DNA of 64,000 bases from Candidatus Omnitrophota bacterium (GTDB lineage: Bacteria > Ratteibacteria > UBA8468 > B48-G9 > DTJG01), in NCBI GenBank assembly GCA_023819255.1, contig JAMWBU010000006.1, forward strand, positions 2,902 through 66,901, in the 5' to 3' direction. The position numbers and the translations under genes are program-made. The notes below the pieces were generated by a model. It searched no databases, was not told where the DNA came from, and saw nothing but the letters and a program-made list of their open reading frames with translations. Position 1 is the first letter of the stretch. The number at the start of each line of letters is the position of its first letter. Shown here piece by piece: positions 22,947 to 26,913 of the stretch.

Positions 22947-25541
22947 ATGAAACTAAAAAAGACTGCAATACTTACAGTGCTGTTGGCTTTCTATTGTTTT
23001 GCTGGTGTTAATATGAGTGGCAGGGTTTCTGACATTCAAAACGGTCAGGGAATTGCTGGTGCAACAGTATCCATCGTCGGAACAGGATTTTCTTCCACTA
23101 CTGACAGTCAGGGGAATTTTACAATATCAAATGTTCCGGCTTATTCCACTGGATTTCAGTTTAAAGCAAGCAAAACCGGTTATGTCGACACATACACTCA
23201 GCTTGGGAATTCAGGAGAAATGGATGCGAATGATATTACTTTTCCCCTGATTTCAAACACACTGTACGGCAATTTGCACAATCAATTATATGGTGGCATT
23301 GCCCATACAAGCGGTAAAGCGGATATTTTTGGTAGGGTTGGTAATGAGTACACTGGAGTGTCCGGGGTTGTTATAACTGCCAGATATATCGACAACAACG
23401 CAAATGCTGGAACTATTAGATATGTCAACGCAAGCAATATGCCTGATGGTTCATTAACATCAACATCTTCAAATGGAGTTTTCATTGCCTATAATGTGGA
23501 TCCTTACAGACCAATAAAGATAACAGGAACAAAAGCCGCAAGTTATTTTTCTTCCTGTGTTGCAATTTGTTATCCTGACAAAGTCACTGTCGGCGGAATT
23601 GAGCAGGTCGACAGTTTACTTCAACTTTCAGGAAAGGTTGGTTGGGATGAAAACCCTGTTTCAGGAGTGACAGTTTCAATCCCTGGCACTTTGAGTTCAA
23701 CGACAACCGGAACTGATGGTTCATTCAATATATCTTTTAATCCTGTAAACTACGGCGTACTCAAATTTTCAAAGTCAAACTATGTTGACACATATTTTTC
23801 AGAAAGAATAGACGAAGATGAAGGAAACAGGAAACAGGGCGATGATGAAGAAGAGAATGAATTTTTCATTATTCCTCAAACTGATTATACAGGGTTGTTG
23901 AATCAGCTTGGAAGGTCGCACATTAATGGTAAAGGAGATATTGTAATAGAGCTTGAAACAATCAATGAAATGAATGTGGCTGGAGCAAAAATAACCCTTT
24001 ATGATAAAAATGGCACAAAGCTCAATCCAGATATCTTATATTTTGATGAAGAAGGTATGCCTGCAACTGGTTTAAATGAAACCACCAGCGAAAGTCAGTG
24101 TCTGATTTTAAATCTTGACCCTGGATATTATTTTATTGCTGCGGAGAAATCAGGTTGTGAATTTTCAAGAAATACAGTTTTTGTTTTTGCCAATGGCATA
24201 ACCAGCGCTCCAAGAATAATTGGACTCCCTCCGATACCTGAAATTATCAAAGCAAAAGCAGAGGACATTCCTTCCGCAAATATCAGCAAGAGCGCTCAAA
24301 ATGTGCCAATGCTTGCTTTTATGTTCCATCTTAACAAGTGGGAAACAGATGAAAGCGTGATTTTTGACAGCATTATTGTAACAGCGAAAGGTACGGGAAA
24401 TATCTCGACAGCGCTTTCAAGCGCAAAGCTTTATCTTGACGCAGACAACAATGGCACCTATGAAACAGAGGTGTCGACAGGAACAATTTCAGGAAATAAA
24501 ATCACATTTAAAAATATCAATAAAGAGATGGATATAGGCTTGAATCAGAGATATCAGGTTGTTTTCAATTTCAATGGAACAGCCTCTATCGGGCAGACCT
24601 TTGGAGTTGATATTCTTAAAAACGCTGATGTTTACAGCCATACAAAAAATACAGGCATTTCAGTAACCTGTGATGGCTGGACGGTTGAAGGAAATCTGAT
24701 GACGATTGCCCAGGTTTATCCACCCTCAAAACCCAGCAATTTTTCACCCGCAAATGGAGCAACACAAGTTAATCCTCTATCATATGTATTGCAGTCGAGT
24801 CCGTTTAACCCGGGTCAGGGCAGCAATGTTCACAGTTCTTCGCAATGGATGATGTGGAAGGATGGAGAAACAGAGGAAACCTTTACCTGGGATAGTGGAA
24901 CAAACACAATAAATCTCACATCTGTTTCAACACCTGTCTTGTTAGAGGGTTCCACAAAATACTGGTGGAAGGTACGGCATCAAAATGGAGATAATATCTG
25001 GAGTGATTGGTCAGATGCGACATACTTTACGACAGCGCAGGGTGGAATTACACCTGCAGGCAAACCGAGCAATCAATCGCCCGAAGATGGGCAAACAGAT
25101 GTTCCATTGCCGGTAGTGTTAACAGGGAGCCAGTTTTCACCGGGTAACTCTGTAGTTCATGCTGCTTCTCAGTGGCAAATTTACCTCGACACCAAGAATG
25201 TAAATCCTGTTTTTGATTCAAAAAGGGATGGAAATAATCTCACCTCAATTACAGTTTCAGGACTTTCATACAATACTCAATATCTGTGGAGAGTCAGGTA
25301 TCAGGATGGAAACGGCGCGTGGAGCCAGTGGAGCGAGTTTACCAGTTTTGAAACAAAAGAGGGTATGAAGGGCGATTTAAATCACGATGCCGAGGTTGAC
25401 ATAAGAGATGTAATACTTTGTTTAAGGATGGCAATTGATCTTGATCCTGTTGATCCTGGTCTTGCAGATATGAATGAAGATGGACAGGTTGATATTTTAG
25501 ATGTCATTTTAATTCTGCGAAAAGCAATTGACCTGGATTAA
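22947..25541 (+). CDS. secreted multidomain protein: signal peptide, CarboxypepD_reg-like beta-sandwiches, two tandem FN3-like repeats, C-terminal type-I dockerin
   Basis: MKLKKTAILTVLLAFYCFA signal peptide. GRVSDIQNGQGIAGATVSIVGTG is CarboxypepD_reg-like. Two FN3-like repeats (...YWWKVRHQNGDNIWSDWSDATYFTT and ...YLWRVRYQDGNGAWSQWSEFTSFET). C-terminal dockerin duplicated segments GDLNHDAEVDIRDVILCLRMAIDLD and DMNEDGQVDILDVILILRKAIDLD. Confidence 0.6.
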   Translation: MKLKKTAILTVLLAFYCFAGVNMSGRVSDIQNGQGIAGATVSIVGTGFSSTTDSQGNFTISNVPAYSTGFQFKASKTGYVDTYTQLGNSGEMDANDITFPLISNTLYGNLHNQLYGGIAHTSGKADIFGRVGNEYTGVSGVVITARYIDNNANAGTIRYVNASNMPDGSLTSTSSNGVFIAYNVDPYRPIKITGTKAASYFSSCVAICYPDKVTVGGIEQVDSLLQLSGKVGWDENPVSGVTVSIPGTLSSTTTGTDGSFNISFNPVNYGVLKFSKSNYVDTYFSERIDEDEGNRKQGDDEEENEFFIIPQTDYTGLLNQLGRSHINGKGDIVIELETINEMNVAGAKITLYDKNGTKLNPDILYFDEEGMPATGLNETTSESQCLILNLDPGYYFIAAEKSGCEFSRNTVFVFANGITSAPRIIGLPPIPEIIKAKAEDIPSANISKSAQNVPMLAFMFHLNKWETDESVIFDSIIVTAKGTGNISTALSSAKLYLDADNNGTYETEVSTGTISGNKITFKNINKEMDIGLNQRYQVVFNFNGTASIGQTFGVDILKNADVYSHTKNTGISVTCDGWTVEGNLMTIAQVYPPSKPSNFSPANGATQVNPLSYVLQSSPFNPGQGSNVHSSSQWMMWKDGETEETFTWDSGTNTINLTSVSTPVLLEGSTKYWWKVRHQNGDNIWSDWSDATYFTTAQGGITPAGKPSNQSPEDGQTDVPLPVVLTGSQFSPGNSVVHAASQWQIYLDTKNVNPVFDSKRDGNNLTSITVSGLSYNTQYLWRVRYQDGNGAWSQWSEFTSFETKEGMKGDLNHDAEVDIRDVILCLRMAIDLDPVDPGLADMNEDGQVDILDVILILRKAIDLD

Positions 25542-25581: not shown

Positions 25582-26250
25582 TTATAACTTCTTATGACAG
25601 AGCCACCAGTCAAAGCACTCAAACTCGCCTTTTTTCGATTTTTCAATCCTTTCTTTAGCTGTTTTAACATCCTTTGCCGGCGGAATAATGACATGATTTC
25701 CTATAATTTCATTGTTGGGCCAGTTTGCCGGCATGGCAACGCCATTGGCGTCTGATATCTGCATTGCTTCAACGGCTCTCAGGATTTCATCCATATTTCT
25801 TCCAAGTTCCTGCGGATAATAAAGAATAATCCTGATTATTCCTTTTGCGTCAACAACAAACACTGCCCTGACAGTGTTTGTGCCTTTGCCAGGATGAATG
25901 AGCCCGAGTTTTTCTGCGACGATACCGGTATCAGCGATAATTGGAAACAGGATCTCAACATTCAGGTTATCCTTTATCCACTCTTCCCATTTTATATGAG
26001 AGAAAACCTGGTCTACACTGAGCCCGATGAGTTCGCAATTTAATGCTTTGAATCTGTCATATCTTTTCTGAAATGCGACAAACTCAGTTGTGCAAACAGG
26101 CGTAAAATCAGCAGGGTGGCTGAATAGCACAAACCATTTTCCTGCAAAAGCATCCGGCAAAATCATTATGCCATGCGTTGTTTGAACAGTGATCTTTGGA
26201 AAAGCGTCTCCCAATAGCGGCATACTTTTCTTTTCATTCATTGCTTCCAT
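25582..26250 (-). CDS. 1-Cys peroxiredoxin (Prx6/AhpC-TSA family)
   Basis: [13 protein letters not shown] peroxidatic-Cys motif. AGGAGG SD upstream. Confidence 0.85.
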
Positions 26251-26369
26251 TTTGCCTCCTTTGTTTGGTTATTATAATTATAACATTTTGAGAAGGTTCC
26301 TAAAATTATTTTTTCTTCCCTCTTTCAAATGGGAGCACACAAGAGGGATGAAAAAGCTGGTAGTAAGGA

Positions 26370-26416
26370 CATTCAAATCCTTTCAAGGAAGGAATAAGCT
26401 GGGGGACTAGGATTTG
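26370..26416. repeat. direct-repeat copy 1 (47 bp) of the tRNA-Gln 3' end plus 28-bp downstream flank
   Basis: cattcaaatcctttcaaggaaggaataagctgggggactaggatttg, identical to 26496-26544 except for a 2-nt AG indel. Confidence 0.7.
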
Positions 26417-26495
26417 GCGCCTTCGCCTCCCACTACGGCTCAGGTCGGCCACCGCACAAGTCCTCGCACTTGCTCGGACTTATACGTCTTCGCTC

Positions 26496-26544
26496 CATTC
26501 AAATCCTTTCAAGGAAGAGGAATAAGCTGGGGGACTAGGATTTG
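26496..26544. repeat. direct-repeat copy 2 (49 bp), overlapping the genuine tRNA-Gln 3' end
   Basis: See copy 1. The repeat ends inside the tRNA T-loop. Confidence 0.7.
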
Positions 26545-26597
26545 AACCTAGACACTCAGATCCAGAGTCTGATGTCCTACCGTTAGACGATCCCCCA
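26527..26597 (-). tRNA. tRNA-Gln (anticodon CUG)
   Basis: Manual fold: acceptor TGGGGGA/TCCCCCA, D-arm GTCT-AACGGTA-GGAC, anticodon stem TCAGA/TCTGA with loop CT-CTG-GA, T-arm CTAGG-TTCAAAT-CCTAG, discriminator G. Close to E. coli tRNA-Gln2. Confidence 0.8.
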
Positions 26598-26706
26598 GTT
26601 TCAGAAGATTTTACCATTGAAGAAACTTATTATCAATGCAGAGATTGTTTTCGGAAGATTCCTTTAAGAAAAATGGCAACAAACAGCAGGTTTCATAGTC
26701 AAATAA

Positions 26707-26913
26707 TTAACGATTTCTCAGTTTAACCTTGAAGTCATTTCTACCGTGTCTTACAACTTCCACATGTCCTTCTCTTGCCAGCCATCCAAGGCTCATCAGA
26801 GAGAGATCCTTTGGCCTATCAATATCCTTGACCATTTTCAAAAATGATACCTCTCCATGTTTATCCAGATAATTCCATATGTCTCCTGCCGCAAAACCAA
26901 TGTCTGTAATCAT
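26707..26913 (-). CDS. small winged-helix (wHTH) domain protein
   Basis: 68 aa. Pattern consistent with a wHTH DNA-binding fold. Last gene of the TonB operon, ATGA-overlapped. Confidence 0.35.
   Translation of the reverse strand: MITDIGFAAGDIWNYLDKHGEVSFLKMVKDIDRPKDLSLMSLGWLAREGHVEVVRHGRNDFKVKLRNR

Follow-up and report, generated by a model that had tools for sequence, protein, structure and literature searches.

A conserved three-way-junction unit behind tRNA genes of Candidatus Omnitrophota, probably a non-autonomous insertion element

Tyrosine-integrase elements that reside at tRNA genes typically leave direct repeats running from the T-loop to the 3' end of the tRNA, and tandem accretion is typical of them as well. 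Among structured RNAs, the aptamers of purine and other riboswitches are usually laid out as a three-way junction that is closed by helix P1 and carries invariant junction strands. Small ribozymes can also be neighbours of tRNA genes, as theta ribozymes, a minimal form of the ribozymes that resemble the one of hepatitis delta virus (HDV), adjoin tRNA genes of phages (PMC10879173), and in eukaryotes the Dada transposons target tRNA genes, in which they generate 6-7-bp duplications inside the gene (PMC8869645). Here we analyse a 64,000-nt stretch of the chromosome of a Candidatus Omnitrophota bacterium (contig JAMWBU010000006.1, positions 2,902 to 66,901; 'the window'), in which a tRNA-Gln(CUG) gene is followed by a GC-rich island that is bracketed by repeats of the tRNA 3' end and its flank. 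We consider it probable that this island is the core of a non-autonomous insertion element that is specific for the 3' ends of tRNA genes and occurs in Omnitrophota and neighbouring candidate phyla. A 2026 survey, covering 229 complete Omnitrophota genomes (bioRxiv 10.64898/2026.06.07.730766), deals with mobile elements without mentioning this one, and literature searches by topic and by sequence string returned no description of it; since most subscription journals were not covered, this negative result is not proof of novelty. The tRNA-linked element is apparently undescribed so far.

The tRNA-Gln locus and the composition of a unit

tRNA-Gln(CUG) is the sole tRNA gene of the window. It was found at 26526-26597 on the minus strand by ARAGORN, which calls it tRNA-Gln(ctg), and by Rfam, where family RF00005 scores 63.1 bits against a gathering score of 29. 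All descriptions of the locus are read on the minus strand, that is, in the sense of this tRNA. A distance of 30 nt separates the tRNA from a downstream stretch of 79 nt (26495 to 26417), which is followed by a second copy of the tRNA from C56 onwards, together with flank. An earlier note on this DNA, made from the sequence, had described a single 47/49-bp direct repeat of the tRNA 3' end plus flank with an AG indel between its copies. The duplication is real, but our repeat search resolved it into two exact direct repeats that bracket the island: 27 nt, CAAATCCTAGTCCCCCAGCTTATTCCT (26518-26544 = 26390-26416), and 22 nt, CTTCCTTGAAAGGATTTGAATG (26496-26517 = 26370-26391). What looked like a 2-nt indel is in fact the seam at which two distinct repeats join. 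The first of these is the duplicated target, C56..C74 plus TTATTCCT, so that the repeated part of tRNA-Gln extends from T-loop position C56 to the tRNA 3' end and into the flank; the second comprises the element's own first 20-22 nt (CTTCCTTGAA-AGGATTTGAA-TG), which recur as a truncated extra unit. An exact repeat of 27 nt is far above chance expectation. The GC-rich island of 79 bp reported in the earlier note was confirmed at 26417-26495, with 63% GC against a window mean of 38.7%, and it lies within the 80-nt stretch of highest GC content in the whole window (0.66, compared to a mean of 0.387 with a standard deviation of 0.063). Within the window, a 22-mer taken from the island has no second occurrence.

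The possibility that this arrangement is an assembly artefact, produced by a mis-joined or looped de Bruijn path, was also considered. Several contigs break within the repeat, contig L005 loops into a second unit at its end, and there is a scaffold gap at the L075 site described below. However, the region is base-for-base identical in an independent European Nucleotide Archive (ENA) assembly (L001/L004), and the same architecture is present in dozens of unrelated assemblies that were made with different assemblers; the probability of an artefact is thus negligible. Contigs L002 and L003 begin inside the repeat, which indicates that the element fragments short-read assemblies.

Comparison with the further copies described below defined a unit of about 105-125 nt that contains no open reading frame (ORF) and is composed of five parts. 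A leader of about 10-18 nt, often with TCTTCYTTGAA, is followed by a segment that we call anti-T, which is reverse-complementary to the local tRNA from position 54 to about position 63. The linker GA(A/T)GR connects anti-T to the module, which is 79-85 nt long and has the form GAGCGAAG...GUGGCCGACC...GGCGC, and the unit ends in the T-copy, which repeats the local tRNA from C56 to its 3' end. The repeat of the tRNA 3' end is derived from the target and belongs integrally to every unit. The order within the module is invariant GAGCGAAG, hairpin P2, invariant GCGRGUGGCCGACC, hairpin P3 with a tandem G.A, and invariant GGCGC. Anti-T and T-copy together form helix P1, which closes the module into a three-way junction (P1/P2/P3) with invariant junction strands. 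The window holds one full unit and a truncated second unit, and the features of the region are as follows.

26608..26636, minus strand: sigma70-like promoter match, TTGATA-17-TAAAAT, TG-extended, just upstream of tRNA-Gln (consensus match only)
26526..26597, minus strand: tRNA-Gln(CUG), intact, no encoded CCA (ARAGORN; Rfam RF00005)
26518..26544, minus strand: original target segment, tRNA C56..G73 with C74 and 8 nt of flank (CAAATCCTAGTCCCCCAGCTTATTCCT); 27-nt exact repeat
26508..26517, minus strand: element leader CTTCCTTGAA, a semi-conserved pyrimidine-rich motif (...TCTTCYTTGAA), common to the L070 element
26498..26507, minus strand: anti-T AGGATTTGAA, reverse complement of tRNA-Gln 54-63 (TTCAAATCCT); 5' strand of P1
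26417..26495, minus strand: conserved module, the GC-rich island (R1 match, covariation, fold)
26488-26495, minus strand: module start GAGCGAAG
26453-26486, minus strand: module hairpin P2
26443-26452, minus strand: module segment GTGGCCGACC
26420-26444, minus strand: module hairpin P3 with tandem G.A
26417-26421, minus strand: module end GGCGC
26390..26416, minus strand: T-copy, repeating tRNA C56..C74 together with 8 nt of flank; the 3' strand of P1 is made up of its first 8 nt
26370..26389, minus strand: truncated second unit consisting of leader, anti-T and TG only (TCCTTGAAAGGATTTGAATG), broken just before GAGCGAAG
26318..26347, minus strand: hairpin CCCTCTT...AAGAGGG, then an A/T-rich run, in the interval that separates the element from the peroxiredoxin gene (read from the sequence)

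The covariance model R1 has exactly one match in the window, at 26404-26511 on the minus strand, with 82 bits, an E-value of 2e-20 and full-length coverage of the model. The window copy belongs to the R1 family, as it shows the family's module order, its closure by anti-T and T-copy and its position directly behind a tRNA gene on the same strand; its anti-T is 10 nt long and its P1 has 8 bp. The leader motif is present in about half of the units and is not part of the duplicated flank in L070. The promoter match upstream of tRNA-Gln is the only one in 26200-26750, and the same promoter scan gave no match between the tRNA and the module. Being on the strand of the tRNA and devoid of a separate promoter, the element is most likely transcribed together with the tRNA, extending the pre-tRNA at its 3' side. 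The hairpin at 26318..26347, which is conserved in the empty-site relative L072, is a possible end of the tRNA transcription unit judging from its sequence; our terminator scan did not call it because its loop has 16 nt.

Covariation and fold of the module

To assess the helices we used 63 distinct units (alignment A1) and, as controls, slid pairing partners and 500 shuffles. In P1, P2 and P3 combined, 88.7% of the cells were paired, compared to 33-48% when the partners were slid, and compensatory double changes were found in 264 cells as opposed to 17-60 in the slid controls. None of the 500 shuffles reached the observed helix values (0/500), and RNAalifold predicted P2 and P3 independently. 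A small structured RNA, which the earlier note had mentioned as a fallback, is thus supported by covariation. The match between anti-T and its neighbouring tRNA is specific as well: P1 has a mean length of 7.5 with the local tRNA but of 4.6 for mismatched pairs, and a P1 of at least 9 was seen in 38% of the former and about 5% of the latter. With respect to the strand, the tRNA-sense strand carries 43 G.U versus 22 A.C pairs, and for the fold of the window copy z is -2.7 on the minus strand but only -0.75 on the plus strand; the G.U excess and the minus-strand fold therefore modestly indicate an RNA of the sense strand. Of the 19 tRNAs without a module, 12 are also without anti-T. As anti-T is mostly absent from module-free tRNAs, we regard it as a part of the element; a few solo remnants made of leader and anti-T exist.

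When the window was scanned against Rfam with covariance models, tRNA was the only family reported at gathering thresholds, and over 26200-26750 with E-values up to 10 the scan returned tRNA plus noise below 20 bits. The Rfam comparison proposed in the earlier note consequently assigned the island to no family. We also asked whether island and T-copy might form a second tRNA or tRNA-like gene, and rejected this since no tRNA covariance model hit them at E up to 10. An alternative, locus-specific hairpin of leader and anti-T was dropped, given that native and chimeric combinations hardly differ in stability (-6.1 vs -5.3 kcal/mol, p = 0.6). In the orthologous tRNA-Gln unit of L070 (2186-2357), GUGGCCGACC is replaced by about 93 nt with extra hairpins and GGCGCC reads GCCGCC, while GAGCGAAG, P2, a P3-like hairpin, anti-T and T-copy are retained. 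The core therefore tolerates large insertions. As a possible pseudoknot, GCG of GAGCGAAG might pair with CGC of GGCGCC, and dimers might form through the palindromes GGCC and GGCGCC.

Distribution, empty sites and target duplication

The 22-mer of the island was found in three metagenome contigs (L007-L009), where it lies behind different tRNAs and in tandem arrays. A pattern derived from these metagenome copies yielded 60 loci in genome contigs, of which about 53, from about 23 metagenome-assembled genomes (MAGs), are real. The other 7, in high-GC genomes (Rothia, Roseivivax and others), received no score from covariance model R1 and were discarded as chance matches. Almost all host MAGs are labelled Candidatus Omnitrophota, Ratteibacteria, TA06 or 'uncultured bacterium'. 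A single genome can have up to 8 or more module loci, and arrays contain up to 5-6 units. At about 40 loci the module starts 17-38 nt past the 3' end of a tRNA gene on the same strand (30 nt after tRNA-Gln in the window), and it is located within 80 nt of 41 of the 60 tRNAs present in the loci. The tRNAs concerned are those for Ala, Arg, Asn, Asp, Gln, Gly, His, Leu, Lys, Met, Ser, Thr, Trp, Tyr and Val; with Pro, known from a variant described below, at least 16 amino-acid specificities are covered. At each locus, the duplicated 3' end is that of the local tRNA itself. Two scans of viral contigs gave no match to module or island.

The tRNA-Gln(CUG) site lies between a DUF2582 gene and the peroxiredoxin gene. 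Both the window's peroxiredoxin and the closest relatives are labelled 'Candidatus Omnitrophica bacterium' in the sources. The site is syntenic among relatives and varies in occupancy; the comparison of empty and occupied sites that the earlier note suggested did reveal a presence/absence polymorphism.

L072/L073 (peroxiredoxin 95% identical to that of the window): site empty, no R1 hit
L076 (Ratteibacteria MAG): site empty, tRNA...CAG ATAATG CTTTATC, no R1 hit
L075 (sister MAG of L076): tRNA...CAG ATAATG, a scaffold gap of 100 N, then CAAATCC...CAG ATAATG CTTTATC
L070 (peroxiredoxin 90% identical): unit that has diverged and contains an additional insertion; duplication from C56 to C74 plus TTAAA

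The empty sites of L072/L073 retain the tRNA and the TTATTTCT... flank. In the occupied sites, namely the window, L070 and L075, C56..73 and a further 5-8 nt are duplicated. In general, the duplicated segment behaves as a target-site duplication of 19-27 nt that has a fixed start, C56 at all loci, and a variable end, which in about 24 of 40 loci lies 0-5 nt beyond position 73. At the remaining loci a unit whose 3' part is missing, usually from GAGCGAAG or its vicinity onwards, comes after the last T-copy; the window is of this form, and 3'-truncated units also terminate the arrays of L016, L068, L065, L052 and L042. The left junction varies between 0 and 8 nt after the tRNA 3' end, and in L057, L062, L051 and L025 the T-loop part of the T-copies has small indels. 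Both the indels and the variable left junction favour a replicative or template-switching origin over conservative site-specific recombination. As a unit sits 0-8 nt past the tRNA 3' end, the tRNA gene stays intact, and since each unit itself terminates with the 3' end of a tRNA, it can be followed by others, giving rise to arrays.

Copy number differs within the source population. The NCBI contig L005 (3207-3598) continues into a second module with an R1 hit, and in the Logan contig L006 (782-974) the full tRNA is joined to the flank variant that follows the partial copy in the window; behind L006 there is possibly an allele without any unit. Counted by assembly, there are two or more units in L005, one plus a partial one in the window and perhaps none in the L006 allele. 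Scaffold gaps of 100 N were noticed exactly at expected positions of units or arrays (L075:2343-2442, L015:1151-1250), which suggests that these elements are systematically under-assembled in short-read MAGs. A separate observation concerns the 'empty' site L072:2340-2440, where an imperfect palindrome, GGGGGATTTTGAAAATCTCCCC, precedes TAGCCCC. It loosely resembles anti-T joined straight to the T-copy without a module and might be the scar of an earlier element.

These data bear on the origin proposed in the earlier note, which interpreted the repeat as the att footprint of a tyrosine-integrase element in the tRNA-Gln T-loop, with attL and attR enclosing the 79 bp that survived from a deleted element. 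Such a remnant might have been mobilised in cis and have formed arrays by accretion. The geometry expected of integrative elements and islands with a T-loop attB, including their remnants devoid of an integrase, is indeed what we found: a 27-nt flanking repeat of the tRNA 3' part starting at C56, a location on the 3' side of a tRNA that stays intact, tandem accretion and sites that are polymorphic for presence and absence. What the repeats enclose, however, is not debris but a conserved, structured and covarying module of 80 nt that is common to all tRNA types, follows tRNAs of at least 16 kinds in about 23 genomes, each time with the 3' end of that very tRNA duplicated, and conservative recombination cannot make such a new, tRNA-specific copy. 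Moreover, conservative exchange relies on a core borne by the element and on precise junctions, whereas here the repeat is always local tRNA sequence, the left junction varies by 0-8 nt and copies have T-loop indels. The unit has neither integrase nor cargo and, unlike att sites, contains an internal segment with complementarity to the T-arm. No integrase gene was detected by Pfam among the window ORFs or as a recurrent neighbour at the 60 loci, although one acting in trans from elsewhere in the genome is possible, and there were no viral hits. The T-loop-to-3'-end geometry of the earlier proposal thus holds, while its tyrosine-integrase origin is largely refuted and highly improbable.

Another view of the same loci is that the unit is a host-beneficial, cis-acting RNA, i.e. 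a riboswitch-like or protein-binding sensor that sits behind tRNA genes and controls tRNA maturation. Anti-T would pair either with the T-copy as a decoy, allowing the tRNA to fold, or with the genuine T-arm, leaving the tRNA misfolded or unprocessed; tandem units would sharpen the response, and spread among tRNA genes would be secondary. The architecture is compatible with a riboswitch, since a P1-closed three-way junction with invariant strands is the usual aptamer architecture, and three-way-junction aptamers such as the purine riboswitch share with it a size of about 80-100 nt, invariant junction nucleotides and a P1 strand with an alternative pairing partner. Anti-T in the arrays L062 and L057 pairs without mismatch with the genuine T-arm over 12-15 nt while the T-copies have T-loop indels, the orthologous units L043 and L053 hold their structure despite sequence divergence, and the module has the orientation of the tRNA and no own promoter, all of which would suit a host RNA. 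On the other hand, close relatives are without the module at the same tRNA, copy number is variable within one population, and truncated or degenerate units are frequent. Positions 56-65 would suffice for a decoy, but the copy invariably reaches the tRNA 3' end, and the context suggests neither a ligand nor a protein. The unit further differs from riboswitch aptamers in that it follows a tRNA instead of residing in an mRNA leader, has no sequence or Rfam similarity to them and shows a polymorphic, repeat-like distribution. We therefore think it unlikely that host benefit explains these RNAs.

Other arrangements were encountered at some loci. A second, different insert, ...CCGACGAT(T/C)A...TCTTCTCTGAAAAAA...GGAGGAGRCCGTGCG...GCAC, is flanked by an anti-T-like segment and by a duplicate of the 3' end of the local tRNA at L011:6700-6960 (+), L047:4020-4100 (+), L019 (-2038), L024 (+2952) and L036 (-4655), and at several loci CCGAC directly follows anti-T. 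The elements that duplicate tRNA ends in these genomes may hence include more than one module type. In another variant an extra tRNA copy contains the module, preceded by the constant hairpin CTGAAATCCNG...CNGGATTTCAG, in its T-loop or variable region and lies immediately upstream of an intact copy of the same tRNA (tRNA-Val, tRNA-Ser or tRNA-Pro). The interrupted copy is often decayed, and the 5' leader is duplicated too (L014:220-540, L015:1250-1540, L029:4560-5290, L035 (minus) 1990-2340 and L049:5230-5555). That these are T-loop introns needed for tRNA function was rejected: every interrupted copy has an intact copy next to it, so there is no evidence that splicing is required.

Proposed mode of spread and possible function

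With regard to possible protein partners, the window is ordinary chromosome. We surveyed 53 ORFs, of which 40 were scanned against Pfam, and used precomputed Pfam annotation for the ORFs nearest the element. The Pfam matches of the 40 ORFs comprise housekeeping and cell-envelope genes only, among them glycosyltransferases, AsnB, a P-type ATPase, TonB-ExbBD, KsgA, PdxA and SurA as well as type II secretion system/type IV pilus genes, arginyl-tRNA synthetase, FtsK, NusA and IF-2. By Pfam, no integrase, transposase, reverse transcriptase, Cas, IscB, TnpA, TnpB or Tn7-like gene was present among the window ORFs, and all-against-all clustering of 481 ORFs from the 60 loci linked no protein family to the module. 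Since there is no such enzyme in the window and no recurrent neighbour at the 60 loci, any protein partner acts in trans. A side observation from this survey is a secreted-looking protein of 864 aa encoded at 22947-25541 (+), with CarboxypepD_reg-like domains (precomputed Pfam) and, as read by eye from the translation, C-terminal dockerin-like repeats; it is in line with the large repertoire of surface proteins that has been reported for Omnitrophota.

Our observations establish that the island belongs to a family, its architecture and covariation, the polymorphism of insertion, the spread in multiple copies and a lack of linked protein genes, and we favour the explanation of a non-autonomous element inserting specifically at tRNA gene 3' ends as the probable one. 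In this scenario, the unit would be co-transcribed with the tRNA as a pre-tRNA 3' extension, in which anti-T would pair with the T-copy to form P1 and close the three-way junction. The folded RNA, or a folded single strand, might be recognised together with its anti-T arm by machinery encoded elsewhere, or by the target, and the element would use this machinery to spread selfishly, presumably by replication or by template switching (target-primed synthesis) and not by conservative recombination. The match of anti-T to the local T-arm could be maintained through templated correction, with the nearby inverted repeats correcting each other, or else through selection for P1.

Several points weigh against this explanation. 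No mobilising enzyme was identified, so that the case for mobility comes only from distribution, polymorphism and truncated copies. In one genome, near-identical modules at different tRNAs are accompanied by locally perfect anti-T segments (10-15 nt) and by very different leaders; simple transposition of a fixed unit is insufficient to account for this combination, and templated regeneration of anti-T, inverted-repeat correction or gene conversion confined to the module is needed in addition. Partial units are truncated on the 3' side, whereas classical target-primed reverse transcription starting at the element's 3' end would give the opposite. Junction strands are strongly conserved across phyla and L043 and L053 have diverged in a structure-keeping manner, and a host-beneficial RNA would also fit both findings. 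Co-transcription with the tRNA, although most likely, is deduced from strand and promoter position. Finally, the nearest empty site, L072, has further indels, and the left boundary in the window is uncertain by a few nt.

Short mobile elements of other kinds offer partial parallels to the insertion element we propose. With short and long interspersed nuclear elements (SINEs/LINEs), MITEs (miniature inverted-repeat transposable elements) and Dada it shares the nature of a short, non-autonomous multi-copy element with internal conserved structure, a duplication with one precise and one variable end, and specificity for small-RNA genes. It differs from them in having a duplication of 19-27 nt that is anchored in the T-loop and in being without own terminal inverted repeats, poly(A) tail or internal promoter; it is also bacterial and has no known reverse transcriptase or transposase partner. 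Of the traits of SINE-like retroposons, the duplication of variable length is seen, whereas truncations are 3'-sided and there is no tail. Compared with MITEs, the sole inverted repeat (anti-T/T-copy) is target-derived and locus-specific, and the duplication is 19-27 nt instead of 2-10 bp. A miniature IS200/IS605 derivative is contradicted by the 19-27-nt duplication and the locus-specific left part, and there is no TnpA or TnpB in the window. In contrast to Dada, the unit preserves the tRNA gene rather than disrupting it. Collectively, the unit lacks at least one defining property of every nearby known system that could be tested.

An RNA-guided mechanism was considered in view of the sequence next to the copied segment. 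Here, the module would be a scaffold and the T-copy of 18-21 nt a 3' guide for an RNA-guided nuclease or transposase encoded elsewhere, with the tRNA gene beside GGTT (G52 G53 T54 T55) as the target, as in transposons associated with clustered regularly interspaced short palindromic repeats (CRISPR) of type V-K (V-K CASTs) that home to tRNA genes. We take GGTT to be the protospacer-adjacent motif of Cas12k. The T-copy begins exactly after the GGTT position of the tRNA, has a guide-like length and, being itself preceded by GCGC, would not target itself; the order of a 5' scaffold and a 3' guide is that of Cas12 and TnpB guides, and like the homing CRISPR RNA of V-K CASTs or the omega RNA of TnpB the unit presents a conserved RNA followed by about 20 nt identical to a tRNA segment beside GGTT. 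Apart from the adjacency to GGTT, though, nothing fits a CRISPR array or a V-K CAST: cas or transposition genes were seen neither in the window nor recurrently at the 60 loci, and within an array one and the same module takes the place of 'spacers' and the tRNA end that of 'repeats'. The window has no Cas12, TnpB, IscB or Tn7-like genes, and none recur at the 60 loci. The would-be guide is held in helix P1 by anti-T, tandem units would have identical 'guides' located directly beside their own target, the scaffold is much shorter than known omega RNA or trans-activating CRISPR RNA scaffolds, and IS200/IS605-type elements make no target duplication. A guide RNA is thus a very unlikely identity for the unit.

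The constant right boundary of the module, always at 55/56 (GGCGC|C56) and beside the helix of a guide-like arm, would be in keeping with a small ribozyme that cleaves, ligates or splices, with anti-T as an internal guide positioning the T-loop phosphodiester at 55/56, either in the tRNA or in the T-copy. Unit-length RNAs could be released or circularised, or tRNA 3' portions could be swapped, and tandem units would resemble ribozyme-bearing satellite repeats. Invariant junction nucleotides and the tandem arrays agree with this idea, as do the interrupted-copy variants, which resemble a module within a T-loop. Theta ribozymes beside tRNAs provide a precedent (PMC10879173), since they, too, are small structured RNAs next to a tRNA on the same strand and presumably within the pre-tRNA transcript. 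Against a ribozyme, no similarity to any Rfam ribozyme was found at E up to 10, the topology is unlike that of hammerhead, HDV-like, twister, pistol or hatchet ribozymes, and the intact tRNA copy beside each interrupted one gives no sign that splicing is needed. A hammerhead core or a clear kink-turn was looked for by eye and rejected, as the tandem G.A of P3 sits inside a regular helix. The unit also departs from theta ribozymes specifically, having no HDV-like match in Rfam and a three-way junction closed by a target-derived helix; its module starts 17-38 nt after the tRNA and not at its end, the tRNA 3' end is duplicated with it, and it resides on chromosomes of Omnitrophota-like bacteria, with no hit in the viral contigs scanned. 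From these sequence features, a ribozyme of this kind appears unlikely.

Taken more broadly, the module might represent a new class of functional RNA that is programmed by the tRNA T-arm, with anti-T as the guide, be it a ribozyme acting at 55/56, a switch of tRNA folding or an RNA of the insertion machinery. We put this forward tentatively, as a possibility that has less than even chances of being correct. If it were true, the specificity of the RNA would be set by complementarity to the tRNA T-arm, over most tRNA genes of a poorly known phylum. The compact, strongly conserved three-way junction with its invariant strands is a good candidate for a ribozyme, sensor or guide scaffold. A target-site duplication that is anchored in the T-loop and accompanied by an internal segment complementary to the target has no described bacterial counterpart, and because the units are GC-rich, break assemblies and mimic att sites, they could be mistaken for scars of prophages or islands. 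If the preferred explanation of a tRNA-specific insertion element is correct, Omnitrophota and related uncultured phyla would carry, in dozens of copies per genome, an uncatalogued structured RNA at the 3' ends of their tRNA genes that leaves the tRNAs undamaged.

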